Part shown: piece by piece, positions 1-40,575 of the stretch | Layout of the letters: every line of letters starts with the position of its first letter | How positions within the stretch are numbered: the first letter of the stretch is position 1 | Notes under the pieces: generated by a model | Seen by the model: only the letters and a program-made list of their open reading frames with translations | Database searches by the model: none | Told to the model about the DNA's origin: nothing | Made by a program: the position numbers and the translations under genes | Source: a virus | Lineage: Duplodnaviria; Caudoviricetes | Direction: 5' to 3' (one strand) | Virus record (IMG/VR): IMGVR_UViG_3300044652_000002 | Location: 1-43,984 of that record | Length of the DNA stretch: 43,984 bases

Positions 1-126
1 GTATCTGGTTCATTTCTCCCCCAAAAGAGCTTTCGCGGCTTCCTTAGTCTTGAAGTGCTCCTCGCGCGTCGTCATAGTCGATGCCATGCGGATGACGCGC
101 TCTGCTTCCTGCTCTAGTGCAGCGTT
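1..126. repeat. 126-bp exact repeat of 43650-43775 (shared left flank of the allelic module swap; circular junction)
   Basis: Base-by-base identity from GTATCTGGTT to GCAGCGTT; the copies diverge at 127 versus 43776. Confidence 0.97.
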
Positions 127-888
127 CACGACGGCAGGAGCGAGATAAAGCGGCTCCTGCTCCTCGCTCGCGTCGAGGTCGTTCCACGGCGTATCGGAGT
201 AGTGCCACTGCTTGCCCTTCTTCCGCTTCCAGCGCCATGCGACCGGAGCGCCCTGCGGCAGCTTCGCCTTGAGCGCCGCCATCAGGTCAACGGATGTTCC
301 TGCGTCAGGCAGCGCAGGACGGCGCGCCGCGTCCACGCAGGGCTTGCAGATGTAGATGTCGGGAAGCTCGCCGTGGGTGATCGACCATTGCTCGCGTGGG
401 CGCTGGTGTCCGCAGAGCAGGCACGAAGGGCAGAGCATCGAACCCTTCGCGTGCCGATCCCAAAAGTCCTTGTAGGTGCGGGCGGCTTGCTCCTCCCCGG
501 TGCTAGGCAGAGCAGCACCCGCAGGCCGGTCGGTTCCCTGAGTCCCGTCCTGAACCCTATCCGGTTGCCCGGTCAGAGGGGAAGCCTGCGGGGCTACATT
601 CAATAGCTCGGCGGCGAATCGCTTGGCCCAAAGGATGCCTTGCCGTGCCTCGCCATCGGGGATCGCGCAACCGAGCACTTCACGCGCTAGGCGTAGCGTT
701 TCCTCGCGCTTCCTGCCGTAGAGCGAAGGCTGCGGCGGTTCGGCGTCCACGATGGATGTTCCGGCAGAGGGCAACGCAAGCTCCATGATCTCGCGCTCGG
801 CAAGATCGGCGTCCACCGGGAAATCGCTGTAGCGGACAGCCTGAAGCAAATCCTTCAAGCGTTGCCGCTTATCGGAACATCCATTCAT
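10..888 (-). CDS. Multi-module mosaic protein (Ea22/DUF551-like style), including a Cys4 Zn-finger module and a PVAW...PLY module
   Basis: ATG at 888 overlaps the upstream TGA (ATGA); modules are joined by recurring ALPxAGTS/ALPSTGEEQ linkers. Confidence 0.8.
   Translation of the reverse strand: MNGCSDKRQRLKDLLQAVRYSDFPVDADLAEREIMELALPSAGTSIVDAEPPQPSLYGRKREETLRLAREVLGCAIPDGEARQGILWAKRFAAELLNVAPQASPLTGQPDRVQDGTQGTDRPAGAALPSTGEEQAARTYKDFWDRHAKGSMLCPSCLLCGHQRPREQWSITHGELPDIYICKPCVDAARRPALPDAGTSVDLMAALKAKLPQGAPVAWRWKRKKGKQWHYSDTPWNDLDASEEQEPLYLAPAVVNAALEQEAERVIRMASTMTTREEHFKTKEAAKALLGEK
292..347. repeat. 56-bp exact repeat of 43929-43984 (shared right flank of the allelic module swap)
   Basis: GGATGTTCCTGCGTCAGGC...GGCTTGC is identical up to the last base of the window. 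Confidence 0.97.
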
Positions 889-1605
889 GCGGGCTCTCCG
901 TCGTAGCACATGCAGTCAATGTCGATGGCCTGCTCGGGGAACAGCTTGGCTTGCCGGTCGTCGGCGTCGTACAGAGCGCCCCATGAGAAGTAGCGTCCGA
1001 GTCCCTTGATCTGCGTCAGGTCCGCGTTCTGCTCCATCGCCACGGCACGCGCGGCGAGATCCGGGTAACATGCGCCGGAGCTCGAAAATCTCCTGCTTCT
1101 TGGACGACGGGCAGAAGAAGCAGGCCGACTTGCCGGGGCTCTTAAGTCCTGCCCTCGCGATAGCCTGTTCGCATTCGGCGCGTCCCCACTCCCATTCGAG
1201 GAGCGGGTAGCGGTATCCCTCGTTGTTCTTGGCGCGGTGCGGCTCGTCTGCGTCGATCCCGACCAGCATCGTGTGCTCGATGCCTTTCAGACGGTCCTGG
1301 ATCGGCTTCACCTTCCATTCGACGGAGCAGGACTTGAAGCCGTAGGCGATGCCGGGGAGGCGCTTGTAGTGCAGGCAATCGGCCTCCAGCGTCGGCTGCT
1401 TGCGGCTCTTGTTGCTCACGACTTCAGGCACCGGCAGACCCCTGCTGGAGCACCAGAACGAGAAGCTCGAAAGGAAGTCGTAGGTGTGCGGCTTCTCGCC
1501 CCCTGTGTCTGCGAACAGGATCAGGTCAACGGGCTCGCCACGCTCCCACAGGCCGATGACCATCGCCGCCGAGTTCACGCCGCCGCCGAAGGAAGCCACG
1601 ATCAT
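885..1605 (-). pseudogene. PAPS-reductase family (PP-loop) protein with a +1 frameshift at ~1067 (real or sequence error)
   Basis: SFGGGVNS, FADTGGE, GIDADE and KSACFFCP motifs; removing one A at 1067/1068 gives MYPDLAARAVAMEQNA...IDCMCYDGEPA* ending at 885 with an ATGA overlap. Confidence 0.8.
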
Positions 1606-1835
1606 TTGGCGGGAATGTCCTGTCGGTGAACATCCATCACGGAGCTAGTGCCAGCCTCTTTGTGTGCATTCACGACTGCCTCCAACGCTGTCTCGCCTTC
1701 GCCGTAATGGAATTTGCTGTCCCGCCAAACACGCGCCCACCACCGTTGGTTCTTCGGTTTGGTGTGATCTACCTCCACGTTGGAGCACCCGGCTGTTAGC
1801 TCGGCCGCTTGCTCGGGGGTCACGGAATTACGCAC
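1602..1835 (-). CDS. hypothetical protein (77 aa)
   Basis: ORF coupled to its neighbours; ends inside the 1610 site. Confidence 0.7.
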   Translation of the reverse strand: MRNSVTPEQAAELTAGCSNVEVDHTKPKNQRWWARVWRDSKFHYGEGETALEAVVNAHKEAGTSSVMDVHRQDIPAK

Positions 1836-2208
1836 GGGCGACTAACCTGCCAGTGCGAATGTCATTGACGACCGGCGTTTCCGGGATCGGCATGTAATGG
1901 GAGACGTAGCCGTAGCTCCAACCGTTGGAGCCACCACCCTTGTATTCGTCGATTACGACCTCGCCGCTGCCAGTGATGATGAGATAGCGCCCCGGCTTCT
2001 CGGGAGCGTTGCCTTCGATCCATCCGTTCTTTTCCATTGGTTCTTGCTCCTTTCTCTCCGAGGAAACGGAAAGCCCCTTGATGGCGAGGTCGAGCAGCCG
2101 TTCCCATTCGTCTGGAAAGACGAAGTTGCGGGACTCGTACTGCTTCTTCCACCGCTCGTACTTCGCGGCTTCCTCTCCGTCGTGGCGCGATGAACATCCT
2201 TGCGTCAT
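1828..2208 (-). CDS. Two-module protein with a C-terminal DUF551-like domain
   Basis: GWI...P...G.YL...W...VSHYMPIPE.P signature; ATGA overlap at 2208; the 2045 site joins the modules and carries an SD plus a downstream ATG. Confidence 0.75.
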   Translation of the reverse strand: MTQGCSSRHDGEEAAKYERWKKQYESRNFVFPDEWERLLDLAIKGLSVSSERKEQEPMEKNGWIEGNAPEKPGRYLIITGSGEVVIDEYKGGGSNGWSYGYVSHYMPIPETPVVNDIRTGRLVARA

Positions 2209-2714
2209 TGGACGAACTTCCATTGGGCGTTCCTCCACACGGTGTAGATTTGGCGATCAGAGCAGCCGTAGATCCCGGCCAGCTCTTGAGCGGTCTTGCT
2301 GCCCTTCAGGGCGCGTATCTCGCGCACCTTGGCTACCGAAAGCTTCTGCTGCTTCACCCTGCGGCCCTTAACGTGCATGTCGATCATGTTGTCCTGGTGC
2401 GTCCCGATGAATAGGTGCTTGGGGTTCACGCAGGGCTGGTTGTCGCAGCGATGAAGGACGTGCATTCCGGTCGGGATGGGGCCATTGGCAAGCGCCCATG
2501 AATAGCGGTGCGCGTTGTAGTGCTTCTCCTTCCAGACGAAATGGCCGTAGCCCATCGGCTTGCGGGCAGCCGTCCAAGGCCAGCAGGCGTCAGGGCCACC
2601 GGACTTGTCCACGCGCATCCAGAACATCTGCTCGGCCGTAACGCCGCACTTCTGGCCGTGCTTTCCCACGGTTCCCCGGAAGGTCTGGCCGCACTTAGGA
2701 CAGGTGGCGCTCAT
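2205..2714 (-). CDS. HNH homing endonuclease with a C-terminal HTH
   Basis: CWPW..GYG..AHRYSW..VLHRCDNQPCVNPKHLFIGTHQDN. Confidence 0.92.
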   Translation of the reverse strand: MSATCPKCGQTFRGTVGKHGQKCGVTAEQMFWMRVDKSGGPDACWPWTAARKPMGYGHFVWKEKHYNAHRYSWALANGPIPTGMHVLHRCDNQPCVNPKHLFIGTHQDNMIDMHVKGRRVKQQKLSVAKVREIRALKGSKTAQELAGIYGCSDRQIYTVWRNAQWKFVQ

Positions 2715-2742
2715 GCTGCGTTGCCGTAGCTGTCGCGACGGA

Positions 2743-2916
2743 TCACAGCTCGAAGCGCTCGTAATAGTCCGGCTCCCGGTATTCGTCCGGGTCGTAGCAG
2801 CTACCTTCCTCGGCCTTCTTGTTGAGGATGTGCGCCTGGGGGTGGTCGCAATGCACCTTGCAGCCCCAGCAGATGCCGTAGCCTTTCGGGCAGTTCAGCG
2901 GCGTGTTGTCAGCCAT
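2743..2916 (-). CDS. small Cys-rich hypothetical protein (57 aa, MADNTPLNCPKGYGICWGCKVHC...)
   Basis: Read by hand; AGGAG SD inside the 2921 site. Confidence 0.65.
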   Translation of the reverse strand: MADNTPLNCPKGYGICWGCKVHCDHPQAHILNKKAEEGSCYDPDEYREPDYYERFEL

Positions 2917-2943
2917 GTCTTGCTCCTATTCCGAAGGAACGAT

Positions 2944-3223
2944 TCACCGAAGTTCCGCCGCTCCGGCTTCCATGAGGGCCAAGCGATGCTCGAACGGCTC
3001 GCGCTCCTCTTTCTTGGCGCACTTGTCGCCACGCTTGGTAGCGCATTCCGCGCAGGCGAACCGCGAAGTAAACGGTGGAGAACTCGTTGAGTCGGCGGTG
3101 GCCGCAGCAGTTGCTTGGGCGCTTATTCCGGTTCGCCCCGCTGTATCTGTAGAGCCGACCTTCGCCAGCCTCCACGTCCTTGCCGCAATCGCAGCAGAAC
3201 GACTTGTAGCGGTTCGCGCTCAC
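2944..3223 (-). pseudogene. Zn-finger protein with a +1 frameshift at ~3055 (real or sequence error)
   Basis: N-terminal CCDCGK; removing one G at 3055/3056 restores VRCAEC...AAELR*. Confidence 0.65.
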
Positions 3224-3369
3224 GCGATTTCCTTCGCGGACTTGCGGCACAGTTCCGCCGCCTTGAGCGCCGCCTGTTCGTTGCGCTTGTCGCCCACTGC
3301 CGCGTATGCCTTGGCGACTTTCTCGTGGTGCTTGGCGGTGGCTTCGTACTGCTCTTTGGTCGGTTTCAT
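3220..3369 (-). CDS. hypothetical protein (49 aa, MKPTKEQYEATAK...)
   Basis: GGAGG SD; GTGA overlap with the next gene. Confidence 0.7.
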   Translation of the reverse strand: MKPTKEQYEATAKHHEKVAKAYAAVGDKRNEQAALKAAELCRKSAKEIA

Positions 3370-3396
3370 CTGCGCCTCCGTATTAAGTGTGTAGAC

Positions 3397-3448
3397 ATTA
3401 AATCATGTCCAAGGAGGGATTGCAAGTCTTTTTTGTGTACCCCATAAT
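3397..3448. promoter_or_regulatory. Divergent sigma70 promoters sharing one palindromic -35 (TTGCAA 3420-3425)
   Basis: Plus strand: TTGCAA-17-CATAAT(3443-3448); minus strand: TTGCAA-17-TTTAAT(3402-3397). Confidence 0.7.
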
Positions 3449-3455
3449 TACGGCC

Positions 3456-3623
3456 ATGACACCTAAGAAACGGGGCAGGCCACCCCTACCGGCCAAGGAA
3501 CGGAGCACCAAACAGGTGCATTTCCGCTGCACCGCAGCAGAAAAGGCGGAATACAAGCGGAAGGCCAAGGCAGCAGAGAAGGGGCTTTCCGACTGGCTGA
3601 AGGACTTGGCCGACAAAGGCTGA
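3456..3623 (+). CDS. Small ribbon-helix-helix regulator with an AT-hook-like KRGRPP (probably leaderless)
   Basis: KKRGRPP...VHFRCTAAEK...A...GLSDWL; ATG 7 nt after the -10. Confidence 0.75.
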   Translation: MTPKKRGRPPLPAKERSTKQVHFRCTAAEKAEYKRKAKAAEKGLSDWLKDLADKG

Positions 3624-3729
3624 TCCGCTTCGTTGGCGTAAACATCCATTAGGGCCGGAGCCCCCGGCATAGCTTTGAGGCCGCCACAGCCCGATCTCGC
3701 GATCTGCTCACCGAGGGCTCCGAAAGTCA

Positions 3730-3990
3730 TCAGAAGGGAATGTCCGCGTCGTCTTGCTTGGCGGCCTTCTCTTCCTTCTTGAAGTTGGAAACTGAGGCGT
3801 ACCACTTCCCGCCCTTGGATTCCTTCACGTCGATGTTTACCCACTGCTCTCCGGCTTTGTATTTCTCGCGAAGCCACTTACCGAGGTCTTCGACCTTGAT
3901 GGCGATCCTGGCCTTTACGAAGTCGGGAGCCTTTTCGTGCGGAGCTGCGACCAAGAGGCCGTCAACGAACTCGATTTCTTTCTTTTCCAT
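3730..3990 (-). CDS. Single-stranded DNA-binding-like protein
   Basis: Acidic DDADIPF C-terminus; directly follows erf. Confidence 0.7.
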   Translation of the reverse strand: MEKKEIEFVDGLLVAAPHEKAPDFVKARIAIKVEDLGKWLREKYKAGEQWVNIDVKESKGGKWYASVSNFKKEEKAAKQDDADIPF

Positions 3991-4644
3991 CTATGCCGCC
4001 TTCTTCGGTTTGGAATCGGTGTGCATCGCCTTGAGCCTGTTTCTGATCTTCGAGTGGGGCTGAAGGACTTCCCAAATCCCGAGGAGCATTTCGTTTTCGT
4101 AGCCGGCGTTGTAGTAAGCCTCATAAGCGGCGATCTCCTTGCCCTCTCCCCACAGGTCAACGATGGTGTTGGCGACCTTCTTTGCTTTCTCTTGATCCTG
4201 CGGAGAGAGGGCTTTGAGGGAACCTGCTACCGGAGTGATCCTTGACTGCTCGCCACTGGCTACAGCGGCGTTGCCGTCGTCATCTTCTGCTGGGAGACCG
4301 CAAATCGCCTGGAGGCCGTAGCGCCGGCCGTAGGTGATCGCTGAGCCGTATCCTTGGGCATCTTCCTTCGTGGCCGGGATTCGTAGCGTCGAGCTGATCC
4401 ACTCGCCGGAGGAATGGAGAAGCATCGTTTCAATGGCGACTCCGTTCTCGGCGTCGTGAACTCCCTGAGCGAAGATGATCTCCTGCTCGAGGAGCGCAGG
4501 CTTGACGGCCTCGACCACGGACGCAAGATCCGCGTACTTCGACTTGAAGTAAGGATTAGAAGCGTCCTTCTTTACTGCGGTGATCTTGGAATGCGCCTTG
4601 ACCAGCGCAGCGGAAATCTTGGCGATGCTTTCGGACTTGTTCAG
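3991..4644 (-). CDS. erf: ERF-family single-strand annealing recombinase (CTG start)
   Basis: NPYFKSKYADL and GSAITYGRRYGL...DDDGN motifs; the frame is open to CTG 4644 with an AGGAG SD and a CTGA overlap. Confidence 0.9.
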   Translation of the reverse strand: MNKSESIAKISAALVKAHSKITAVKKDASNPYFKSKYADLASVVEAVKPALLEQEIIFAQGVHDAENGVAIETMLLHSSGEWISSTLRIPATKEDAQGYGSAITYGRRYGLQAICGLPAEDDDGNAAVASGEQSRITPVAGSLKALSPQDQEKAKKVANTIVDLWGEGKEIAAYEAYYNAGYENEMLLGIWEVLQPHSKIRNRLKAMHTDSKPKKAA

Positions 4645-4802
4645 GCGACTCTCCTAATGATTCGATCCAGTTTCTTGTCCTGTAGCTCTTGCTCTTTCTT
4701 CGGAAGCCAGCCGTGCTTTCTCCACGTTTCCTGAACGTCGGTTGACGTGGAGGGCGTGTAGCGGAAGTCCCTTTCGAGAATCGACTTGAGGGGCTTGGTC
4801 AT
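4641..4802 (-). CDS. small phage protein (53 aa, SILERDFRYTPSTSTDVQETW)
   Basis: Read by hand; overlaps the flanking start and stop codons. Confidence 0.7.
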   Translation of the reverse strand: MTKPLKSILERDFRYTPSTSTDVQETWRKHGWLPKKEQELQDKKLDRIIRRVA

Positions 4803-4885
4803 CGGTACAAAACGGCGAAGAAGAAAGACTTCACCCGGCCGAAGCCGTTGCGCCTTGCGATCTCGTATTTCTCGCGGAAGGTCAT
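4799..4885 (-). CDS. 28-aa peptide (MTFREKYEIARRNGFGRVKSFFFAVLYR)
   Basis: TGATG and ATGA coupling on both sides. Confidence 0.5.
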   Translation of the reverse strand: MTFREKYEIARRNGFGRVKSFFFAVLYR

Positions 4886-5037
4886 CAGCGGAAAAGCGGC
4901 TCGAGAACGATCAGGCAGATAACGAGGATCAACAGGACTTTGCCCGCGTCGTCCTCGGAGATCAGTTGGAAGTCGTCAATGACGCCATGCTTCAGGTCGT
5001 CTATGGCGGTAACGATTCTGGATTGGTAGAGGTCCAT
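4885..5037 (-). CDS. small membrane protein (50 aa)
   Basis: TAATG coupling; hydrophobic C-terminus. Confidence 0.6.
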   Translation of the reverse strand: MDLYQSRIVTAIDDLKHGVIDDFQLISEDDAGKVLLILVICLIVLEPLFR

Positions 5038-5405
5038 TAGCCCTCCCAGGTGTCATCGCAGTGAGCTATTTCCGCCGCTTCTTCGCGGACAGCCTCTTCC
5101 CCTATCCCATCCTTGAGGAAGTCGTCGATCAGTTCGTCCCGTATCGCGTCGGCAATCGCGCCGTGTTCTCCACGGTCAGCGAGTAGGAGAGAGCCGAGTT
5201 TGAGAAGCAGCGACTTGAAGGTGTCGCCGTTAAGCTTGGTGTCGAGGAGGTCAACGACGGAGCAGCCAGCGACTGTCTTACCTTCCTGAAGCTTGGACTT
5301 CAGCTCCTCGCGGGCTTGATCCATGAAAGGCTCGGGGTCTTGCCCCTGCGTGTCGTGGCGCAGCTCGTCTATCGAGACTCGGCAGGGGGTATCGAAAGCG
5401 CCCAT
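5037..5405 (-). CDS. hypothetical protein, first gene of the pL operon
   Basis: 122-aa ORF just downstream of the predicted pL. Confidence 0.75.
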   Translation of the reverse strand: MGAFDTPCRVSIDELRHDTQGQDPEPFMDQAREELKSKLQEGKTVAGCSVVDLLDTKLNGDTFKSLLLKLGSLLLADRGEHGAIADAIRDELIDDFLKDGIGEEAVREEAAEIAHCDDTWEG

Positions 5406-5410
5406 GCGTC

Positions 5411-5452
5411 TTTATCGCACATCCGATAATCCGTGTCAACGGACTTCCGATA
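5411..5452 (-). promoter_or_regulatory. pL promoter with two OL operators
   Basis: TTGACA-17-GATAAA; operators TATCGCACATCCGATA (5413-5428) and CAACGGACTTCCGATA (5437-5452); consensus palindrome TATCGGAnnTCCGATA. Confidence 0.75.
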
Positions 5453-5564
5453 AAGGGTAGGGCAAACCACCACAAAGACCGATGTGCGGCGCAGCAATTA
5501 GGGGCGGCGGAGGTGAAACATGGTCAGCGCTCGGTGGATAACTCCGAGCGTGACTTAGTGCCAG

Positions 5565-5987
5565 TTATCGCTTCGTCTTGCTTGTCTGTCGGCCTGGGCG
5601 GCCGTAGGCGCTTTCTACCTTGTCGTCTGGAACGGCTGGGCGCTCGGCCGCGCTGGTCTTGACCATCTCTACAACCATGTCATGAATCCGCTTCCTCACC
5701 TCGGGGGCGAGCTTCATGAACTCCTTGGCGTGCCTTACACCCTCCGCCGGGAGGGGAGATCCGACCTCTTCCATAGGCCCTTCTCCTTGAGCAAGCCAAA
5801 TTGCGCTTACTTGCAAGGCTTGAGCCAAGGCAACGAGATTAGTTCCCACAGGGGATTTGGATTCCCCCGTCTCGATCTCTGAGATTGCAGACTGCGGCAC
5901 CCCTGCGGCCTTCTCCAGCTCCTGCTGGGTCAAACCTCGCAACTTCCTGGCGTGCCGGAGGCGCACCCCTAATGCGTCTCGAGCCAT
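5565..5987 (-). CDS. cI: CI-like XRE/HTH repressor (no S24 peptidase domain)
   Basis: RLRHARKLRGLTQQEL..AAGVPQSAISEIETG; divergent from cro. Confidence 0.88.
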   Translation of the reverse strand: MARDALGVRLRHARKLRGLTQQELEKAAGVPQSAISEIETGESKSPVGTNLVALAQALQVSAIWLAQGEGPMEEVGSPLPAEGVRHAKEFMKLAPEVRKRIHDMVVEMVKTSAAERPAVPDDKVESAYGRPGRQTSKTKR

Positions 5988-6010
5988 GCCCAAATTGTGC
6001 CGCGCAGCGC

Positions 6011-6055
6011 TATCGGAACGGGGATATTGCATTTTTATCGGAGTTCCGGTTTAAT
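6011..6055 (+). promoter_or_regulatory. pR promoter with OR operators
   Basis: TTGCAT-17-TTTAAT; TATCGGAGTTCCGGTT (6036-6051) and TATCGGAACGGGATA (6011-6025) match the OL palindrome. Confidence 0.75.
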
Positions 6056-6065
6056 CGTAGGGAAG

Positions 6066-6263
6066 ATGACCAAGCAGGAAGCGATAGATCACTACGGGAC
6101 GCAGATGAAGTTGGCGACAGCTTTGGGCGTCCGGCAATCAACGATCTCCGAATGGGGCGAGTACCCGCCGGGGATTCGTCAGTTGCAGATTGAACGTTTG
6201 ACGCGCGGCAGGCTTCGCGCCGAGGCCGATGTTCTTTCTCCGAAGCGAAAGCGCGCCGCATGA
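6066..6263 (+). CDS. cro: Cro-like HTH protein
   Basis: MTKQEAIDHYGTQMKLATALGVRQSTISEWGEYPP..RQLQIERLT.G.L. Confidence 0.9.
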   Translation: MTKQEAIDHYGTQMKLATALGVRQSTISEWGEYPPGIRQLQIERLTRGRLRAEADVLSPKRKRAA

Positions 6264-6305
6264 CTTCGCCGCACCCAGCATCCTCCTCCCTCGTGCTGGG
6301 GCTTC

Positions 6306-6345
6306 ACCCCCGCCGGTTGTCCGTGGCCGGCGGGGTTTCTCTTTC
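6306..6345 (+). terminator. tR1-like intrinsic terminator
   Basis: CCCCGCCGG-loop-CCGGCGGGG followed by TTTCTCTTT. Confidence 0.65.
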
Positions 6346-6348
6346 CTG

Positions 6349-6555
6349 ATGCCGCACCGAGAAAAACGCAGCGCCCAGGTGCGCGCAAACATTCCTGCCA
6401 CGCTCAAGGAACAGCTTGAGCTATTCGTGGCCGAGGAAGGCAAGGTGATTTCCATGTCCGATTACCTCTTCGGGGTTTTGGAAGAGCACGTCGAGATGAA
6501 AACTGCCATGCGCATAGCAAAACAGAAACTCGGTCGTCGCGTGGGGAATCAGTAA
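6349..6555 (+). CDS. Ribbon-helix-helix regulator in the cII position
   Basis: VRANIPATLKEQLE....EEGKVISMSDYLFGVLEEHV. Confidence 0.7.
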   Translation: MPHREKRSAQVRANIPATLKEQLELFVAEEGKVISMSDYLFGVLEEHVEMKTAMRIAKQKLGRRVGNQ

Positions 6556-6561
6556 GCCCCA

Positions 6562-6610
6562 TGTGTCCCGAAAAAAAATTTTCCGCAAAAAGTGTCCCGA
6601 TGTGTCCCGA
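6562..6610. repeat. Three direct GTGTCCCGA repeats around A/T tracts
   Basis: Copies at 6563, 6592 and 6602. Confidence 0.85.
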
Positions 6611-6611
6611 C

Positions 6612-6719
6612 ATGTCTTACGAGCTGGCAAAGCAGGCGTGGATCTCGGACCACCCAGAAGCGACACCGCAGGAATACGAGAAGGCCATCCGCGAAATCGC
6701 GGAAAGGATTGGCTACTAA
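6612..6719 (+). CDS. 35-aa phage protein (MSYELAKQAWISDHPEATPQEYEKAIREIAERIGY)
   Basis: Read by hand; amphipathic helical pattern. Confidence 0.65.
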   Translation: MSYELAKQAWISDHPEATPQEYEKAIREIAERIGY

Positions 6720-6819
6720 CGGGGCAGCCTCGATCAAGGCGCTATGCCGCGTCCTGCCCCCTGGCATAGCAGCCCCGACCCAACAACAAAAAGGGCAGGG
6801 AAGGTGAACGGGCGGGTAA

Positions 6820-7494
6820 GTGACGGACAGGGTTGTGCGGGATGAACTGCTCACGAGCGAGCGGTATTGGTCGGTCAGCATCGAGGCTCAACGCCTCTTC
6901 GTGCATTTGATTCTCTGCGCTGACGACCTCGGAAGATTCAGCGGGAAGAATTACACCATTCGCACGGCCTGTTTCCCCGGCCAGGCAGTCCAAGCAGAGA
7001 AGGTCGAGAAGCTTTTAACCGAGCTTCAGGACGCGGATTTGGTGCGGATCTACCAGCATGAAAGTGAGCGATTCATTTTCATCCCGAGATTCCGTCAAAG
7101 GCTGCGTTATTTCCACAGCCGTTACCCTGCCCCTCCTAAAGAAATCAGCGATGTAGCTACAGAAAAGTCTGACTCAAGACGGACTACGGTCAGTCCCGAG
7201 TCTGACTCAAGTCAGCGTAAGAGAAGTGAAGTGAAGAGAAGAGAAGAAAAGCTAGTAGGTCGCGCTTCGCGCATCCCTGCTGCTTGGGAGCCTTCGGATT
7301 CCCTAACGTCATGGTTTAGGGAGAACCGCCCGGACTTAGACCTTTTTGCGACGGTTGCGAACTTCAGGGACCACTGGATAGCGGCCTCGGGGACCAAGGC
7401 GCGCAAGCACGATTGGGACGCCGCTTTCAGAACTTGGGCTAGAAACGAGCGCGGCGGGAAGGCTAGCCAGCAGCCGGTGAAGGTGGACATTTGA
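6820..7494 (+). CDS. Replication initiator (O-like, DnaT-like C-terminus)
   Basis: ADDLGRF N-terminal motif; FRDHW...DWDAAFRTW C-terminus; internal repeats. Confidence 0.8.
   Translation: MTDRVVRDELLTSERYWSVSIEAQRLFVHLILCADDLGRFSGKNYTIRTACFPGQAVQAEKVEKLLTELQDADLVRIYQHESERFIFIPRFRQRLRYFHSRYPAPPKEISDVATEKSDSRRTTVSPESDSSQRKRSEVKRREEKLVGRASRIPAAWEPSDSLTSWFRENRPDLDLFATVANFRDHWIAASGTKARKHDWDAAFRTWARNERGGKASQQPVKVDI
7166..7251. other. Putative replication origin inside the initiator gene
   Basis: AGTCTGACTCAAG repeated at 7166 and 7199, then a purine-skewed AAGAG/AAGTG tract. Confidence 0.6.
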
Positions 7495-7907
7495 CCGCCG
7501 ATCAATTCGTCTCCGGTCTCGCAAAAGTCAGACGCACAGCTCCAGGCGAATGGGTCGCCTGCTGCCCGGCCCATGAAGATCGCTCGCCATCTCTCGCGGT
7601 GAAGGAAGCCGACGACGGGCGGATCTTGGTTCACTGCTTTGCGGGCTGCTCATTCGAGTCCGTCGTCAGCGCGGCCGGCGCAAAGCCAGAAGAGCTATTC
7701 CCAGCGAAGCCGATGCAGAAAGATCACGCGCCGCGTTTCCCGTTCAACCCCGCAACAGTGCTTCGCGCGCTCGCATTTAACGCAACCATCGTGGCGATTG
7801 CCGCTTCGGACATGGCGCAAGGCAAGCAATTGACAGTTGAAGAGAAGGACAAGCTATTCGACATCGCTGGCGAATTTAACGAGGCTGTGAGTTATGCAAC
7901 TCGTTGA
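7491..7907 (+). CDS. Primase-type Zn-finger protein
   Basis: CCPAHEDRSPSL...LVHCFAGC. Confidence 0.85.
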   Translation: MTADQFVSGLAKVRRTAPGEWVACCPAHEDRSPSLAVKEADDGRILVHCFAGCSFESVVSAAGAKPEELFPAKPMQKDHAPRFPFNPATVLRALAFNATIVAIAASDMAQGKQLTVEEKDKLFDIAGEFNEAVSYATR

Positions 7908-8826
7908 GCGCGCTATCAAGCGATTTAACGGCGTGATCGACGGAGACTCGATCAATTGGCAGCAGTACATGAAGCCGTCCGATGCCGCCCGAATCGTTCC
8001 TGCGGAAGCCCTAGCCGAGAGAGGCAAAGCTCGGTTGATGATCGGCGCAGACCAAGAGGAAGGGCTAACACTCCCCTGGGCAAAGACGCATGGAAAGGTT
8101 CTGATCCGTCCGGGCAAGGTTTGCGTATGGGCAGGCTGGACGCACCACGGCAAGACGCAGATGGTTAAGCATCTCCAGCTCCACGCGCTCTCGAGATCCG
8201 AGAAAAGCCTGATCGCCTCGATGGAAGAAGAAGTCGTGGACGTTTGGACCGATATGGCCACGATGGCGTGCGGTAGCCAAGAGCCGCCGCTTAAAGAGGT
8301 CGAGTCATTCGTAGAGTTCGTGCGCGGGAAGCTTTGGCTCTACGACCAGCAAGGCATGGTTGACGCTAAGAAGATGCTCGCCGTTATCAGGTATTCGGCC
8401 GCCGAGTTGAAGGTGACTCAGGCCGTCGTGGACTCGCTAATGATGCTCGCGATGGGTCGTGATGACTACGAAGCCCAAGCCGATTTCGTAGGCGAGCTCA
8501 AATCCGTGGCGAAAGACACCGGCGTAACCGTGCATCTCGTTTGCCATATGCGAAAGCGCGATGGCAAGGCGGGCGACGAAGCCCCAGGCACTACGCACGA
8601 CATCGCTGGGGGACATGAGATCGCGTCCAAGGCCGACTACGTTTTTATGCCTTGGAGAGACAAAAAACCGAATGCGAATCCGTCTTGCATTCTCAAGGTT
8701 GACAAGCAGCGCGGCCGGAAGAACTGGATCGGATCTGTGGGATTGAACTATCACGCCAACTCGCGTCAGTTCATTGAGGACGTTCACCCGATGAGGTTTT
8801 GGGGCGATGCAGGCCAAGAGTTCTAA
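7894..8826 (+). CDS. DnaB-like SF4 helicase
   Basis: GWTHHGKT Walker A, SMEE, VVDSL, HLVCH, KQR. Confidence 0.88.
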   Translation: MQLVERAIKRFNGVIDGDSINWQQYMKPSDAARIVPAEALAERGKARLMIGADQEEGLTLPWAKTHGKVLIRPGKVCVWAGWTHHGKTQMVKHLQLHALSRSEKSLIASMEEEVVDVWTDMATMACGSQEPPLKEVESFVEFVRGKLWLYDQQGMVDAKKMLAVIRYSAAELKVTQAVVDSLMMLAMGRDDYEAQADFVGELKSVAKDTGVTVHLVCHMRKRDGKAGDEAPGTTHDIAGGHEIASKADYVFMPWRDKKPNANPSCILKVDKQRGRKNWIGSVGLNYHANSRQFIEDVHPMRFWGDAGQEF

Positions 8827-8986
8827 CCACGACCGAGCGCCTTTGTGCGCCGCTTTCGTCAAGGCGATGCGAGAAACCTTTGGTGAAATCTCTGTTCTTT
8901 ACGTTTCCGAGAATGGCCTGCAATTGGGCGAGAAGGACGCTAATCAATGGGCGTCGTGCTTCTTCGTTGGCAAGGCTGAGGAATGA
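8807..8986 (+). CDS. small phage protein (59 aa, PLCAAFVKAMRETFG...SENG)
   Basis: Read by hand; ATGA overlap with ninB. Confidence 0.6.
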   Translation: MQAKSSNHDRAPLCAAFVKAMRETFGEISVLYVSENGLQLGEKDANQWASCFFVGKAEE

Positions 8987-9378
8987 GCCGCAGTTTCGTT
9001 ATCACTACTTCGGATCAGCGCGACAGGCTCTTTCAGTTCCTATCCAGGCGCGAACTTCCTATGCAGGTTGATGTGGGCGAGCCTCGAGAGCCTAGGACTT
9101 TGAGCCAGAACAATCGCCTTTGGGCGCTGCATACCCTCGCTTCGGCCGAGACCGGGTACACCCCCGATGAGCTTCATAACCTGATGCTCGCCAAGTTCTA
9201 CGGTACTAAAGAGATCGAAGTGAAGGGCTACAGGTTCACCGTGCCGGCGAAGAGGTCCAGCACGCGAGACAAGCAGGAGTTCAGGGAATTTCTGGATAAC
9301 GTCGAAACGTACTACGCATCAGAACTAGGAGTTTGGCTTGGCCAAGAAGAACAAGAAGCCCTCGTTCGCGGCGCTTAA
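8983..9378 (+). CDS. ninB: NinB-like recombination protein
   Basis: RTLSQNNRLWAL...SST..KQEF.EFL..VE. Confidence 0.8.
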   Translation: MSRSFVITTSDQRDRLFQFLSRRELPMQVDVGEPREPRTLSQNNRLWALHTLASAETGYTPDELHNLMLAKFYGTKEIEVKGYRFTVPAKRSSTRDKQEFREFLDNVETYYASELGVWLGQEEQEALVRGA

Positions 9379-9742
9379 AAAGAAACTAGACGCTGTTTTC
9401 TCTCAGTGGATTCGCAGGAAAGATGCTACTTCCCAGGGTCTCGCTGTCTGCGTGTCGTGCGGGGCGGTAAAGCTTTGGAAGGAACAACAGTGCGGGCATT
9501 TTGTCTCAAGGATCTATCTCGCTACGAGATGGCACGAGAAGAATGCCGCCGTTCAGTGTGGCGCGTGCAACGTACTGAGGAGAGGCAACTACGCCGAGTA
9601 CACAGCCTACATGCTCAGGAAGTACGGCCAGGAGGTAATTGACGAGTTGATTAGGTTGAAGCGCCAGCCGGTGAAGATGACCGCCGCCGAGCTGGAAGAG
9701 AAGATCCAGTTCTACCAACAAAAACTAGAAAGCCTCGCATGA
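9338..9742 (+). CDS. ninG: NinG/Rap endonuclease
   Basis: LDAVFSQWIR.KD..CVSCG..QCGHF.SR...RW.E.N...QC..CN. Confidence 0.9.
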   Translation: MAKKNKKPSFAALKKKLDAVFSQWIRRKDATSQGLAVCVSCGAVKLWKEQQCGHFVSRIYLATRWHEKNAAVQCGACNVLRRGNYAEYTAYMLRKYGQEVIDELIRLKRQPVKMTAAELEEKIQFYQQKLESLA

Positions 9743-9912
9743 CCCCAAACCCGAAGAAAGAGCGAGTCCTTCAGATCGCCAAGGATCACCCAGACCTAAA
9801 TAGAGCCGAGATTGCCAGAATGGCGAACTGCTCCGCCGCCTTCGTCACTCAGACCCTCGGAACGGTCAGGCAGTACAAGAAGCGCGAGAAGCCCCAGGAG
9901 CAGCCGTCTTGA
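9739..9912 (+). CDS. small HTH protein (57 aa)
   Basis: HPDLNRAEIARMANCSAAFVTQTL; coupled on both sides. Confidence 0.7.
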   Translation: MTPNPKKERVLQIAKDHPDLNRAEIARMANCSAAFVTQTLGTVRQYKKREKPQEQPS

Positions 9913-10451
9913 GGGAGAAGATATTTAAGTCCCTCAATACCTCTGATCTCTCAAACGAGGAATGGGAGAACGCGGCCCATGTTGTAGCTTCGATTGGTGC
10001 GGCGCAAATTAACCGACGCCAATTAACCCTCGGCGCGTTGCTTTTGAGGCTCCGAGCTGGGCACGCTCAATTCCTCCCAAGGATCTTGGCTCTTCTGAGC
10101 CTCACAATCGCATCTAGAGCGCGCAGGAGCCATTGGAAGGGCATCGGACGCCACAACGCCCACACTGTCGCTCAAATCGCCGTAGATCGCTTCCTGGATG
10201 TTCTGTGCAGTGATTGTCGAGGAGTAGGAACCATCGGTGAATTAGGCCAAGTCATTGTCCTTTGCCAAACCTGCCGTGGTTCAGGCAAGCGGAAGGACTC
10301 TCAGCACTCGATGGCCGACGACTTAAATATGTCCATTGCTCAATTCAAGGAGCATGGCATTGCTGCTCACTTAAAAGAGATCTTGGCATTGATGGATCGC
10401 ATGGAAGGTATGGCGGCCGGCGGAACGAAACTTCAAGCGCGAGGAAATTAA
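9909..10451 (+). CDS. Q-like late antiterminator with a DnaJ-type Zn finger
   Basis: CSDCRGVG...CQTCRGSG; last gene before the late operon. Confidence 0.7.
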   Translation: MREKIFKSLNTSDLSNEEWENAAHVVASIGAAQINRRQLTLGALLLRLRAGHAQFLPRILALLSLTIASRARRSHWKGIGRHNAHTVAQIAVDRFLDVLCSDCRGVGTIGELGQVIVLCQTCRGSGKRKDSQHSMADDLNMSIAQFKEHGIAAHLKEILALMDRMEGMAAGGTKLQARGN

Positions 10452-10524
10452 GCGAAAGTTCTTGCGCGAGTCATCTTTTGAGCGTAGTAAGCGTTAACGC
10501 CGTACCGAAGTAGAAGAACAATTC

Positions 10525-10724
10525 GGAGCGCCCGGTCGAGCTTACTCCCGGTTATCGCGAATCTAACGGATTCGCTCGCTCTAAAAAATCGCGCCTCCCG
10601 CCAGAAACCGCTAACAACCGTTCAACCGATAGCAAGCGGGCTGTCTGCGCTCGTGGAGGCCGACTTTCCTCCTTCAAGGAACGTTCTCGGACGTAAACCG
10701 AGTGGCGCAGGCTGTAGGCGCGAT
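10525..10724 (+). ncRNA. Candidate structured RNA in the late leader
   Basis: Nested helices: 10557-63/10569-75, 10588-96/10716-24, 10597-601/10636-40, 10643-50/10705-12, 10655-59/10668-72, 10686-90/10698-702. Confidence 0.55.
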
Positions 10725-10789
10725 CTCGCTTCGATCTAAGCAGGCCGCTGGCTCCTGCGCGACGGGCCATCCTTTCAGGAAGATTCAGA

Positions 10790-11485
10790 ATCGAGCAAAT
10801 CCGGCTGTTTATTGGGCACGATCCGAGAGAAGCAGTAGGGACGCACGTCTTCCTCGAGTCTCTGTGGGAGAAGTGCGAAGCTCAGGTAAATCTAACGGTC
10901 CTGACGCCGAACCTCATTAGTGCGCTAAATCTTAGTTCGGACGGGACAAACAGCTTCAGCACAGCCAGGTTTGCGATCCCCGAGCTGATGGGTTACTCGG
11001 GAAGAGCAATCTTCATGGATGGCGCGGATATGCTTCTGCGCTGCGATATTAGGGAGCTGTGGAACGAGAAAGACGGCCCAGAGGCGGTGAAGGTCGTTAA
11101 GCACGACTACCGCACGAAGAACCCACGGAAGTACGTTGGCACTCCTCTAGAAGCGAATAACGAAGACTACGAGCGGAAGAACTGGTCTTCAGTGGTTATT
11201 TGGAACTGCGGGCATTGGGCGCACTTCCGAAACCGCGAAAAGCTTTTAAGCAACGACGGCAAATACCTTCACCGATTTAGCTGGCTTCAGGATCACGAGA
11301 TTGGGGATCTACCAGCGAGGTTTAATCATTTAGTCGGTGAGCAAGACTTTGACGAGAAAGCCAAGATCGCCCATTTCACCTTGGGGATACCTGGCTTTGA
11401 GCATTACCGCCACGCCGATTACGCGCAGGAGTGGACGGAGCAACTGAAGCGCGCGGCTCGAGGACTTCAGTATCTAGGAAAGTAA
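10790..11485 (+). CDS. GT-A fold glycosyltransferase (probable ATC start)
   Basis: IRLFIGHDPRE, TNSFSTARF, FMDGADM, KNWSSV, HFTLGIP; the frame is open from 10790 with no ATG/GTG/TTG before 10988. Confidence 0.82.
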   Translation: MEQIRLFIGHDPREAVGTHVFLESLWEKCEAQVNLTVLTPNLISALNLSSDGTNSFSTARFAIPELMGYSGRAIFMDGADMLLRCDIRELWNEKDGPEAVKVVKHDYRTKNPRKYVGTPLEANNEDYERKNWSSVVIWNCGHWAHFRNREKLLSNDGKYLHRFSWLQDHEIGDLPARFNHLVGEQDFDEKAKIAHFTLGIPGFEHYRHADYAQEWTEQLKRAARGLQYLGK

Positions 11486-11489
11486 ATCT

Positions 11490-11711
11490 ATGGCCGCTCC
11501 GAATCCCAAAGGCAGCACTGGTTACAGAGGCCGCGCCTCTACTCCAGGAAGCAATTCGCAGCACAAGGTTGGTAAGTGGAATGTGACGGCCGAGCTGCAG
11601 AAGGATACGGGCTCAATCATGGATGTTGACCGACCTTCCAGTTATGCCCAGATCGGCCCTCAGTCCAAGACTGGCTTTGGGAAGAACGAAGACCATACGA
11701 AGGGAAGCTAA
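11490..11711 (+). CDS. hypothetical protein
   Basis: AGGA SD; abuts the next gene. Confidence 0.65.
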   Translation: MAAPNPKGSTGYRGRASTPGSNSQHKVGKWNVTAELQKDTGSIMDVDRPSSYAQIGPQSKTGFGKNEDHTKGS

Positions 11712-11927
11712 ATGGCAAAGATGAACGGGTGTAACGAAGGAATGGTTGGTCCCAACGGGACGCATTCCACGAGAATGCAGCCGCAAAACCACGGACGCCA
11801 GAACCTAGCTAAGGGCGGAGTCAACAAGCACTCAGGCGGTTCTGACAAATGGGGCGAGAAGCCCAGCGTAGCGGCTGGTGGTGCTCATCAGGGCAAATAC
11901 ACCCACATGCCGAAGAAGTATGGCTAA
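11712..11927 (+). CDS. hypothetical protein (basic, Gly-rich)
   Basis: Coupled ORF. Confidence 0.65.
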   Translation: MAKMNGCNEGMVGPNGTHSTRMQPQNHGRQNLAKGGVNKHSGGSDKWGEKPSVAAGGAHQGKYTHMPKKYG

Positions 11928-12108
11928 AGGCGCTCGGCACTGGATTGCTGGTGCTATTCAGCATCCCGGCGCTCTTCACAAGGAACTCGGTATTCCAAAG
12001 GGCAAGAAGATCCCAGCGAAGACCTTAGCCAAAGCCGCCAAGAAACCAGGCATTGAGGGCAAGAGGGCAAGGCTCGCTCAGGCCCTCAAGAAGATGCGTA
12101 GCTACTAA
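11920..12108 (+). CDS. small basic phage protein
   Basis: WIAGAIQHPGALHKELGIPKGKKIPAK...RARLAQALKKM. Confidence 0.75.
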   Translation: MAKGARHWIAGAIQHPGALHKELGIPKGKKIPAKTLAKAAKKPGIEGKRARLAQALKKMRSY

Positions 12109-12524
12109 TGGCAAATCAGTTCGACCGCAGAGGCCCGCCGGAACGCCTGAAAAAGGGCCATGACGACAGCACGAAGGACAAGATTCGCGCTGAAATGCTC
12201 TCCAAAAGACTGGAGAAGTACGCCAAAGCCAAGGGTAAATCCATCGAGAAGTACCGCATGGAGCCCGCCCAGGTGCAAGCCGCCAAGGTTCTGATCGAGC
12301 GCGGCAAGCCTGCTCTACAAGCCGTAGAGCAAACCATCGTTAATCCGATGGATCAAATGAGCCCAGAGGAGATTAGGGAGCAGGCAAAGGCCCTCATTTC
12401 TTCTCAGATTCCGCTGGTGCTCGATGCAATCGACTCAGATCCAGCTCTCAAGGCCGCTGTCCAGGCGCATATCAGCCAGAAACCTGTGTTGGTAGAGCAC
12501 AAACAGGACACAAAGGCGGCGTAA
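12108..12524 (+). CDS. Probable terminase small subunit
   Basis: QVQAAKVLIERGKPALQAVE motif, size and position. Confidence 0.55.
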   Translation: MANQFDRRGPPERLKKGHDDSTKDKIRAEMLSKRLEKYAKAKGKSIEKYRMEPAQVQAAKVLIERGKPALQAVEQTIVNPMDQMSPEEIREQAKALISSQIPLVLDAIDSDPALKAAVQAHISQKPVLVEHKQDTKAA

Positions 12525-12680
12525 GTCGTTCATTCGTAAGGCAGTACAGCGGATTAGCCAACTGATGCTCAATCAGTAGGCCAGGAGATTCCCTTGGCCG
12601 AGCTGGCCGGCATGGGGTGCCCTCCCCCACGGCTCGCATGAGCGGGCACGAGTACCCCTTCCCATATTTTCGGAGCCCAT

Positions 12681-12977
12681 TTGCTTCCCCCGTTATGCCA
12701 GATGTGCGGCACGAAGCATCACGCGCATCAGGCGCATGTCTTTGCATCTAACAGGGCTGCATCTAACACAAGTGCATCTAACAGATCAGCAGAGGTCCGA
12801 CCTAGAGCGGTTATGGGCGAGGGCAAAGACAGCGCCGGCTGGGAGTGCGGAGCGCGGTCAGGTGGATTGGGAAGTGATGCGGTGGTGGGAGGAGTTAATC
12901 GGAAGCAGCGCTGGTCAAGAGACGCATACAACGCCTACCAGCGCGAGTACATGAGGAAGCGTCGGGCGCGTGGCTGA
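12681..12977 (+). CDS. Zn-finger/basic-tail protein with internal ASN repeats
   Basis: CQMCGTKHHAHQAH; YNAYQREYMRKRR. Confidence 0.65.
   Translation: MLPPLCQMCGTKHHAHQAHVFASNRAASNTSASNRSAEVRPRAVMGEGKDSAGWECGARSGGLGSDAVVGGVNRKQRWSRDAYNAYQREYMRKRRARG
12743..12783 (+). repeat. 3x TGCATCTAACA with a 15-bp period
   Basis: Copies at 12743, 12758 and 12773. Confidence 0.9.
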
Positions 12978-14022
12978 TTTCATCGCTGACTTCCGGGAGG
13001 TTATTCGGAGGGGTACAGGCAGCGAGCTAAAACAGAGACAAGTCCTGAGGAAGCTGGATCGGTTCGAGAGGGAGCTTAAAAAGGTTGGCGGGGATGTAAA
13101 TGCACATCCTCAGCGGAAGTTTGTTGAGGCTCTTTGCCAGGACGGGCACGGAGATTTTAAGGAGCTGATGAAGCAGCTCTGCTTTGCGAGACTGGTCCGT
13201 GGTGACTTTTCGAGCTGGGAGGGCTGGCAGTTCAGAAACGAGTGGGCTGAAGCTTCTTACCACCCGTCGATGTATGAAAGACGTTGGAAGCCTGGAGATG
13301 GGGCTAAATCTTTAGCTATCTTGGGGGAGCAGGGGATTGGGGACGAGATCATGTTCTCGTCTTGTCTTGGGGAGGTTTGTGATTTAGTCCCAGAGGTCGT
13401 GGTTGAGTGCGATCCTAGGTTACAAGCTGTGCTCGAGAGAAGCTTTCCGGTGAAGACGAGACCTAGGTCGGACATCATTCACCGTGGGACTTCGATCAGG
13501 TATTTAACCGCTGACCGTGAGGAGGAGAAGTTCATCCCCATTGGAGACTTACCAAAGCTCTTTAGGAGGTCCAGGGAAGACTTTCCTAGAGTCCCGTACC
13601 TCAAACCCCTGCCGGAGAAAGTCACGTCCTACGCCGATCTGAAAGGCAGGACCGGTATTGCCTGGAGGGGGAGGACTGGTCAATTTAGAGCCGAAGACCT
13701 GGGGGTGGTTAATCCGGTCTTTCTTCAATACGACGGCTGGGAGTACGAGACTGAGAATTTAAGCGGTTTCAGACCTCCTATTGATTTACACGATGACGTG
13801 GAAGACATCCTCGGGATCTGTGCGAATCTCGAGAAGGTCGTTACTACTACCCAGACGATTGTCCACTTCGCTGGAGCTGTAGGAACGAAGGTCGAAGTGA
13901 TCCTGCCGCCTAAAGGTTCTTCAAGGGTCGAGAACGCGATCCCTTACCGATACACCCAGCCGGAGATGGTGTGGTATCGGGATGTGAAAGTTTTTCCTAG
14001 CTTGATGGCTTACAAGAGATGA
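12970..14022 (+). CDS. GT-B-like glycosyltransferase (GT9/TPR-associated type)
   Basis: GEQGIGDEIMF, ECDPRL..VLERSFP, PIGDLP, GIAWRG, VHFAGAVG. Confidence 0.72.
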   Translation: MADFIADFREVIRRGTGSELKQRQVLRKLDRFERELKKVGGDVNAHPQRKFVEALCQDGHGDFKELMKQLCFARLVRGDFSSWEGWQFRNEWAEASYHPSMYERRWKPGDGAKSLAILGEQGIGDEIMFSSCLGEVCDLVPEVVVECDPRLQAVLERSFPVKTRPRSDIIHRGTSIRYLTADREEEKFIPIGDLPKLFRRSREDFPRVPYLKPLPEKVTSYADLKGRTGIAWRGRTGQFRAEDLGVVNPVFLQYDGWEYETENLSGFRPPIDLHDDVEDILGICANLEKVVTTTQTIVHFAGAVGTKVEVILPPKGSSRVENAIPYRYTQPEMVWYRDVKVFPSLMAYKR

Positions 14023-14660
14023 ACGTCTGCATCGTAGGTCACGGTCCGAGTCTCAGGACCGCGAAGCTGGGTAAAGAGATTGACGCTTGCGATTTGGTGG
14101 TGAGGTTGAAGAACTGCGGATATTTACTGGCTGAACCGCAGAACTACGGTCGCAGGACCGATGTCATGTGCTCCTCGACCGAGGTCTTGTACAACCTCCC
14201 GAAGATCAAAGCATCTGAGTATTGGGGCTGGCCGAAGAAGGGGGAATATTCTCCAGCCAGAGTTAAGAGACTCGAGCGGATCGTCAAACCGGCCCCGGTG
14301 AAAATTCCTCTGCAAGCGGCGATGCTTTGGACTGCTGTTTTCCACGAGCTGGGCGGGAAGCACAAACATCTTTCAACTGGCCTTGGCGCAATCGTTTGTG
14401 CTCTGGAACTGAAGAGGCCTGAAAAGATTTACCTCGCTGGTTTCGACAAGGTTATTAATCCAGAGACCGAGGGCTATCAGTCCACCGTCCCCACCCTTTG
14501 GAACAAAGAGGGTAAGGCGGATACGGGCCACGATTGGGCGAAAGAGAAAGAACTGCTTGGGTATCTGCAGGCTCACTACAACTCGAAAATAATCGACCTT
14601 GCTCGCGGTCACTACCTTTCACCCGCAGGGGTACAGCTCGTACGGCCGGCGGCTGCTTGA
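14019..14660 (+). CDS. GT29 sialyltransferase-like protein
   Basis: CIVGHGPSL...G.EID..D.VVRLKN...YG.RTD, STGL and AGFD sialyl-motif-like segments. Confidence 0.72.
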   Translation: MNVCIVGHGPSLRTAKLGKEIDACDLVVRLKNCGYLLAEPQNYGRRTDVMCSSTEVLYNLPKIKASEYWGWPKKGEYSPARVKRLERIVKPAPVKIPLQAAMLWTAVFHELGGKHKHLSTGLGAIVCALELKRPEKIYLAGFDKVINPETEGYQSTVPTLWNKEGKADTGHDWAKEKELLGYLQAHYNSKIIDLARGHYLSPAGVQLVRPAAA

Positions 14661-15333: not shown

Positions 15334-15410
15334 CCCGTTGTATTGGGCGATGGTGACGGATGGGATCCTCGCGCCCCCAGAAAACATAAAAGAAAAGCTA
15401 GAGGAGTTTC

Positions 15411-16445: not shown

Positions 16446-16459
16446 CCTTCCACCCGACC

Positions 16460-17756: not shown

Positions 17757-17770
17757 GTAGAGAGAAGAAA

Positions 17771-37845: not shown

Positions 37846-37846
37846 T

Positions 37847-40551: not shown

Positions 40552-40575
40552 GCCGGATGTTCTATGTCGTGAAGT

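Follow-up and report, generated by a model that had tools for sequence, protein, structure and literature searches.

Phages are described as carrying arrays of small accessory genes, methylases among them, that are without intI and display GTT/AAC core triplets; these are phage clusters of attC sites lacking integron integrases (CALINs; Qi et al. 2023, PMC9892861). In T4-type phages, PeSL cassettes are promoter-terminator units between genes that combine short repeated elements with module exchange in a hypervariable early region (Arbiol et al. 2010, PMC2839356). Lambdoid boundary sequences are associated with Rad52-like recombination and with mosaic joints at short conserved sequences (PMC3029335, PMC3945230), and the mini-elements of mycobacteriophages termed MPMEs are near-identical 439-bp copies in accessory regions, with an inverted-repeat end and a 6-bp addition at one end (PMC3029335). 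Here we describe the accessory operon of an uncultured, temperate soil virus of the Caudoviricetes (IMG/VR record IMGVR_UViG_3300044652_000002, 43,984 nucleotides, hereafter the window), in which a two-armed 24-bp motif lies at joints of small modules, including joints inside a gene. A preliminary description of positions 110-3649 had presented that region as the left half of a site-delimited cassette array; the feature is real, smaller than was claimed there, and a variant of site-bounded module shuffling.

The genome is that of a circular temperate phage of 43,649 bp with a lambdoid layout. Positions 43650-43775 exactly repeat 1-126, and in the Logan contigs of two sequencing runs (X1 and X2) the phage is a single circular contig of 43,649 bp; it was not found in two other runs (X3 and X4). 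The accessory operon consists of about 28 small leftward open reading frames (ORFs), running from an ssb-like gene across the contig ends to xis, int, and tRNA-Thr. Since the genome is circular, the two halves of the array form a single operon between erf/ssb-like and xis/int, and 110-3649 is its promoter-proximal half.

The complete site, GCGYTGCC-N7-GRAACATCC, occurs in four exact copies, all within the accessory operon. The site at 292-315 (- strand) is the joint of a zinc (Zn)-finger module and the module next to it, read in frame as ALPDAGTS; that at 754-777 (-) joins the first and second modules of ORF 10-888 and reads ALPSAGTS; that at 859-882 (+) is in the opposite orientation, just past the start of the same ORF, and reads GCSDKRQR; and that at 41471-41494 (+) marks a gene end in the operon's other half, where a third frame reads DVSPKGNA. 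No fifth copy is present in the genome even with three mismatches, whereas shuffled sequences yield a mean of 0.64 sites when three mismatches are allowed. The pattern was derived from its own four copies, and a prior-free search for spaced motifs was hence added. Using spaced 8+9 words with up to two mismatches, it recovered a four-member family in the array; none of four control windows has such a family, with sets of at most three members. Complete sites are evenly divided between orientations (two of four each way) and use three reading frames, giving three peptide readings; the constraint is therefore on DNA, and a protein-level origin is excluded for these four. In all four, imperfectly inverted arms surround the N7, the layout of a core site (two inverted arms and a core of 6-8 bp). 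GTT lies at the left of the site and AAC 12 bases later.

Half-sites extend the pattern to gene borders. The genome contains 12 copies of arm A (GGATGTTY), nine of them in the array. Seven of these nine words lie no more than 30 nt from a gene end, a proportion expected to be 24.6% (P = 0.001, with gene ends taken from our by-eye annotation of the 28 ORFs). The remaining two are at protein-module joints set by homologues. Against this, arm A by itself is not enriched above the best word of control windows (log10 P of -3.2 vs. -2.9 to -3.6). Arm-A half-sites with arms at 1629, 2193, 3641, 40295, and 40555 are all at gene ends. The first (1612-1638, -) is in the junction upstream of the gene similar to 3′-phosphoadenosine 5′-phosphosulfate (PAPS) reductase and has a partly palindromic partner arm; the second (2181-2202, -) follows the start of ORF 1828-2208; the third (3618-3650, -) is the promoter-proximal one and combines arm A with a CCGCTT arm across a spacer one base short; and the last two (40292-40313 and 40552-40563, both +) are at gene junctions. 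An arm-B site at 42147-42176 (+), also at a gene end, has an exact 14-mer in common with 853. By eye, a weak site that pairs an arm-B-like with a ribosome-binding-site-like arm (490-513, -) marks the upstream joint of the Zn-finger module.

One swap at motif edges is visible in the assembly itself. After the 126-base overlap, the tail of the contig runs into 150 bases unrelated to 127-288 and then rejoins the main sequence at the 292 site, with 56 identical bases to the contig end and AA shared before one mismatch. The main allele, module A (127-288, -, 54 codons), is thus faced by an alternative, module B (43776-43925, -, 50 codons), that is in frame at both ends; the best local match between the two is 9 nt, and the 292-aa ORF is open in both. 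The left breakpoint (109-130, -; allele B counterpart 43758-43779) falls directly after GTT at 124-126 on the + strand, and the right breakpoint at the arm-A edge of the 292 site. Homologues of module A are found in three other mosaic proteins. None was detected for module B; its likeness to RQLERELA modules was seen by eye only, and phmmer returned no match. We infer that allele B is a minority allele assembled as a tip.

The protein in which the swap occurs has 292 aa (10-888, -) and about five modules, plus a hairpin (507-604, -) that is read in frame as a spacer peptide and has attC-like geometry under relaxed rules only. Among the best 150 of 194 matches to this protein, nearly all have only one module in common with it. 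One of them (P0006) matches from the 754 site to about 604, and most match the Zn-finger module (319-477, -), between 490 and 292. Module ends in homologues coincide with the sites at joints of the 292-aa protein, at 754 in the former and at 490 and 292 in the latter. The Zn-finger module is present in more than 100 other proteins, mostly with different neighbors. When 37 close homologues were compared and those with long enough neighbors clustered, window included, neighbors fell into 29 clusters per 31 sequences, upstream and downstream alike. A linker of the xS[AST] type, a pattern picked by eye, directly follows the module in 20 of 34 close homologues against a background of 8.3%. An atlas search with the module named no family. 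Together, the in-frame swap at site edges and the homologous modules that end at the same joints support the earlier proposal that modules are delimited by sites.

In one metagenome locus (L200), the Zn-finger module is a free gene, and TGTCCG is found at 11 places within 3.3 kb, all on the same strand and mostly at gene boundaries. This word is a different site from the 24-bp motif, with a partly similar core. In the same locus, 7830-10680 (identical in L198 and L199) contains about ten small genes, most with a preceding TGTCCG word that in places is a TGTCC-N6-GGACA palindrome. The array is near an insertion sequence-like transposase ORF and a tRNA-like stretch, and no recombinase was seen in the 20 kb covered.

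We tentatively favor the reading that the joints are recombinase sites at which sub-gene modules are spliced, by an enzyme that is itself a postulate. The two-armed motif likely acts as the core site of a tyrosine recombinase: its arms are imperfectly inverted, the 7 bases between them are free to vary, GTT/AAC triplets are present, and the breaks fall at arm edges. That an enzyme reads the motif is suggested by its sequence. Such a recombinase would swap modules at the arm edges, fusing them in frame into mosaic proteins. It may be the phage integrase, acting away from its att site, or an integron-type or Xer-type recombinase of the host. Identical flanks might then allow Erf recombination to pass ready-made alleles between kin; such spread of finished alleles can occur under every explanation considered here.

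Several observations weigh against recombinase sites. Only four sites are complete. The 7-base cores differ among all four complete sites. Lambda-type recombinases require matching cores. The differing cores thus argue against lambda-type exchange and would require position-specific partners or a homology-independent, integron-like reaction. No second site-specific recombinase was found among the 69 + 30 ORFs scanned, which are part of the ORFs in the genome. Allele B is missing from the Logan contigs of both X1 and X2, which contain allele A only and thus leave this assembly as its single source; these runs are perhaps one data set filed twice, and Logan contigs drop rare variants. The flanks of the two alleles are identical, so homologous recombination can explain the swap. 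In IMG/VR, the exact 24-bp site does not occur as an array elsewhere (ten of ten matches are single), and it was found beside none of 80 PAPS-reductase homologues (the best 80 of 127 loci). By eye, phage L213 has a module in common with the window, with no 24-bp site around it. Two cargo genes are apparently frameshifted, suggesting decay.

A further point on that side is that no close relative was found for genome-to-genome comparison. A scan with the ssb-like protein returned 74 loci, all distant, and scans of viral contigs with the mosaic protein and the Zn-finger module, as well as a scan with the integrase, returned no close relative. The scan of genome contigs gave a single weak match in Lachnospiraceae (L212), and that of metagenomes gave four loci, of which L198-L200 are one sequence and L201, unrelated-looking, was dropped. 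Two proteins (P0001 and P0030) were without match in INPHARED, and DNA matches in that database were limited to single genes. A homologue search with ORF 1828-2208 returned only itself. The pattern ATGGATGTT-N12-AACGC was estimated to occur in about 390 stretches, near a rough chance estimate, and no array was seen in the best 40 of 120 stretches scored for motif density. In L214 (5000-7500), a gene that contains long, low-complexity, Ala-rich repeats is present in at least five tandem copies.

An alternative, unlikely in our estimate, is that a host integron integrase brought the modules in as attC cassettes, that their hairpins have since eroded to halves, and that homologous recombination alone acts on them now. 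PAPS-reductase homologues adjoin attC-like hairpins in several phages, and one phage contig (L224, 80-3260) keeps such a homologue and methylase-like genes among six arrayed attC-like sites; an ssb-like gene 68% identical to that of the window lies downstream. These arrangements agree with the phage CALINs of Qi et al. (PMC9892861). We built two attC half-site profiles from 11 attC-like sites of these phages and ranked about 88,000 positions. The allele-B breakpoint, with its break after GTT, is attC-like (ranks 2 and 3), and the half at 3638 ranks 45 and 17. Both results favor eroded cassettes, and folded attC sites are easily deleted by slippage according to the relevant part of Loot et al. 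(10.1101/2022.09.11.507474). On the other side, the same joint in allele A reaches only ranks 366 and 134, and the complete 24-bp sites score poorly, with ranks of about 100 to 12,900 at the positions probed. No complete attC is present in the window: the best match to a sequence-only attC model (no base pairs) has an E value of 0.17, whereas that model recovers an untrained attC in L229 at 3e-4. A scan with relaxed attC geometry gave seven matches in the genome, one of them in the array, and recovered four of six control sites. A CALIN needs two or more complete attC sites; in view of the absence of any significant match, we rejected the classification of the array as one, but it may descend in part from a CALIN. 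The 24-bp sites were also compared by eye with the attG CRGM motif and do not match it.

The integron parallel had been carried further in the preliminary description, which proposed 3622-3649 as an entry site of the array analogous to attI. The half-site at 3618-3650 is indeed the first site of the operon, but the proposal finds no support in the ssb-like relatives, in likeness to attI1, or in the integrase. Neither arm A nor the shared arm occurs within 400 nt downstream of the ssb-like gene in any of 72 relatives (two of the 74 loci were dropped for short flanks); these are only 30-75% identical, which makes this a weak test. Using attI1 and IntI1 from record MH445380, the likeness of 3618-3650 to attI1 ranks 122 of the 1158 GTT-ending 22-mers of the genome, and the pattern CTAA-N5,6-GTT is at chance (5 vs. 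5.5). The 754 site and a GATGTT stretch upstream in attI1 have 14 of 19 bases in common, a post hoc comparison that we regard as a lead only. The integrase (37923-38843, -) is a phage tyrosine integrase of ordinary type at the far end of the operon from 3618-3650. It scores 26.6 bits against the integron family TIGR02249 (cut-off 265), its best structure matches are phage integrases, it is without the IntI insertion, and its Arg-to-His distance is 70 aa compared to 131 in IntI1. The I2 helix is a hallmark of integron integrases, as stated in the cited part of PMC7790495. The operon, with no I2-type integrase and no attI beside an intI at the array head, was rejected as a complete integron, and 3618-3650 is probably one more degenerate joint that happens to come first rather than a dedicated entry site.

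A third explanation dispenses with a dedicated enzyme. Illegitimate or Erf-driven microhomology joining, with selection for open frames, would create the joints; the motif would be a boundary sequence carried along when modules are copied, and the remainder would reflect ribosome-binding sites and coding bias of linkers. We consider this doubtful. It fits the adjacent Erf single-strand annealing recombinase (3991-4638, -; Pfam and PHROGs) and the efficient recombination of 78%-identical DNA by Erf of phage D3, as reported in part of PMC3945230. It also fits the abundance of short repeats in the array, about twice that of controls: 31 repeats agree at 13 of 14 bases, compared to 15-19 per control window. 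In 5 of the 31, both members are near gene ends, where 1.9 would be expected (P = 0.04 with a limit of 30 nt, 0.07-0.08 with limits of 20 and 40 nt). The word AGGAGCAAG accounts for several claimed sites, and arm A alone, as noted, does not exceed control maxima. Yet the complete sites have 15-17 fixed bases split by a variable core, short of the 23-27 bp given as the Red-beta pairing length, and their fixed arms, free cores, and two orientations look selected for protein binding and not for homology.

The preliminary description had counted thirteen sites from 110 to 3649, which was not confirmed as such. Three complete sites (292-315, 754-777, and 859-882) and half-sites are present, but a total of thirteen is reached only by counting the lone arms at 490, 2006, 2043, 2215, 2718, and 2920. 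Three lone arms contain the ribosome-binding-site-like word AGGAGCAAG (494, 2051, and 2927), and most of the other claimed sites are ribosome-binding words or at chance level. An arm said to be shared by 3622 and 40697 does exist as a 14-mer, GGCYGATCCGCTTC, that occurs exactly twice; its positions are 3618 and 40693, which agree at 13 of 14 bases. The second is a short palindrome (40693-40718, +) at the end of an adenine methylase gene, and in a Bradyrhizobium phage a methylase of 79% identity is not accompanied by this arm. The idea that half-sites travel with their own modules is consistent with the A/B swap and with the pairs 853/42147 and 3618/40693, but each match is near chance.

That the sites are inverted ends of small nested mobile units with passenger genes, similar to MPMEs or miniature inverted-repeat transposable elements, is improbable. 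Arm-A words can be drawn as nested brackets around the circle, in four pairs with 3641 unpaired, and this pairing ranks 3 of 120 under gapped scoring; 40292-40313 and 2181-2202 form an inverted repeat of 18/22, the 859 and 754 sites pair as a long hairpin, and 748-890 folds well (z of -3.4 and -4.4). Without gaps, however, the pairing ranks 18 of 120, and such inverted repeats occur once or twice per control window. No transposase was found among the scanned ORFs, no consistent target duplication was seen by eye, and no inverted pair encloses the A/B swap. Least credible, and in our view very unlikely, are operators or stoperator-like roadblocks for the regulator or the repressor that lie at joints only by their gene-end position: the array begins with a regulator and divergent promoters, the stoperators of mycobacteriophages are short, numerous, and located between genes (PMC3029335), and the 859 site contains TTATCGGA, a word repeated in likely CI operators, but stoperators are one-directional and intergenic while the complete sites are two of four each way with two inside an ORF, the complete motif is missing from both control regions, and the CI-type word is in only one of the four complete sites.

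The modules said to be bracketed by sites were confirmed in part. Pfam supports the PAPS reductase, the HNH endonuclease (2205-2714, -; also PHROGs), and a ribbon-helix-helix (RHH)/NikA-like regulator (3453-3623, +), the sole inverted gene annotated in the array. Pfam did not confirm the DUF551 label of ORF 1828-2208 (-), which matches an unnamed PHROG only and has two modules with an internal ribosome-binding-site-like joint at 2043-2069. No complete sites bracket the HNH gene. The PAPS-reductase-like gene (885-1605, -) has its apparent frameshift near 1066-1075; its C-terminus runs on in another frame to 885, and the Logan contig has identical bases at 1066-1075. In the Cys-rich ORF (2909-3223, -), the apparent frameshift is near 3070 by eye, and a second Cys pair is in another frame (ORF taken as 2945-3223).

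The array is headed by a divergent promoter region (3389-3448) with two GTGTA direct repeats, in which the rightward promoter was found by scan and the leftward by eye. The ssb-like gene (3730-3990, -) matches no family in Pfam, PHROGs, or NCBIfam, and its label comes from an acidic DIPF tail and its position after erf. Between its stop and the first site, 3650-3729 forms a hairpin (z of -1.6 for the folded stretch, not significant), and the ssb-like genes of L005, L006, and L010 are followed by stretches of similar appearance. The repressor and cro are near 5565-6263; TTATCG[GC]A repeats at 5412-5453 and 6009-6050, on either side of the repressor gene, are likely CI operators. At the other end of the operon, the integrase lies beside an excisionase (38687-38995) and a complete tRNA-Thr(CGT) (37847-37922), the latter the only clear match in an Rfam scan. 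A second TTCGTAA anticodon-loop word at 37779, in a short stem, precedes this tRNA (37755-37922); the word may be the attP core, in which case the full tRNA would be a replacement copy. In phage L213, the 5′ half of tRNA-Thr(CGT) adjoins the integrase. By eye, the 24-bp sites match neither the anticodon-loop att core nor the CI operator. Just before the terminase, 12970-18873 contains glycosyltransferase-like, DegT aminotransferase, 2OG-Fe(II) oxygenase, and methyltransferase-like genes, possibly for DNA or virion modification.

A defined motif at joints inside genes and one visible swap make site pairs directly testable with few enzymes. If a recombinase reads the sites, they would be a natural in-frame domain-shuffling tool of phages; if none does, they would clearly exemplify eroded cassettes or boundary sequences. 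A broader version, in which recombinases with compact 24-bp sites, open in several frames, build combinatorial polyproteins and many uncultured soil phages do likewise with lineage-specific sites, is speculative and on balance unlikely. Our literature search, which most subscription papers fell outside of, turned up phage CALINs, Rad52-like mosaicism, boundary sequences, and MPMEs; neither the 24-bp site nor in-frame module splicing at such sites was described in what it returned.

Compared to these systems, the operon has points of likeness to each. As with attI1 of class 1 integrons, a site is at the promoter-proximal end of the array and ends in GTT; unlike there, intI is absent, an integrase is at the opposite end, the spacer is one base shorter, and the site was not seen in the distant relatives compared. 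Short repeated elements and module exchange are common to PeSL cassettes, but no promoter was found at the sites here and several are inside ORFs: a promoter scan of 1-6200 gave one promoter-like match (3420-3448) and none at sites, and terminator-like matches were near shuffle level. The lambdoid layout, adjacent Erf, and mosaic joints at short conserved sequences recall boundary sequences, from which the motif differs, as far as the cited accounts go, in that a single genome carries several copies of it, oriented both ways, whose arms are fixed and whose cores are free. Small units in a phage accessory region and inverted-repeat ends recall MPMEs, with nothing here similar to their near-identical copies or 6-bp addition. 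Phage CALINs, as characterized in the cited part of that work, are likewise arrays of small accessory genes without intI and with GTT/AAC triplets; the operon differs in having no complete attC, in a site that places AAC 12 bases after the GTT at its left, and in that its units are often sub-gene modules fused in frame, and similar cargo is found in attC-like arrays of six other phage loci (L223, L224, L226, L236, L249, and L296).

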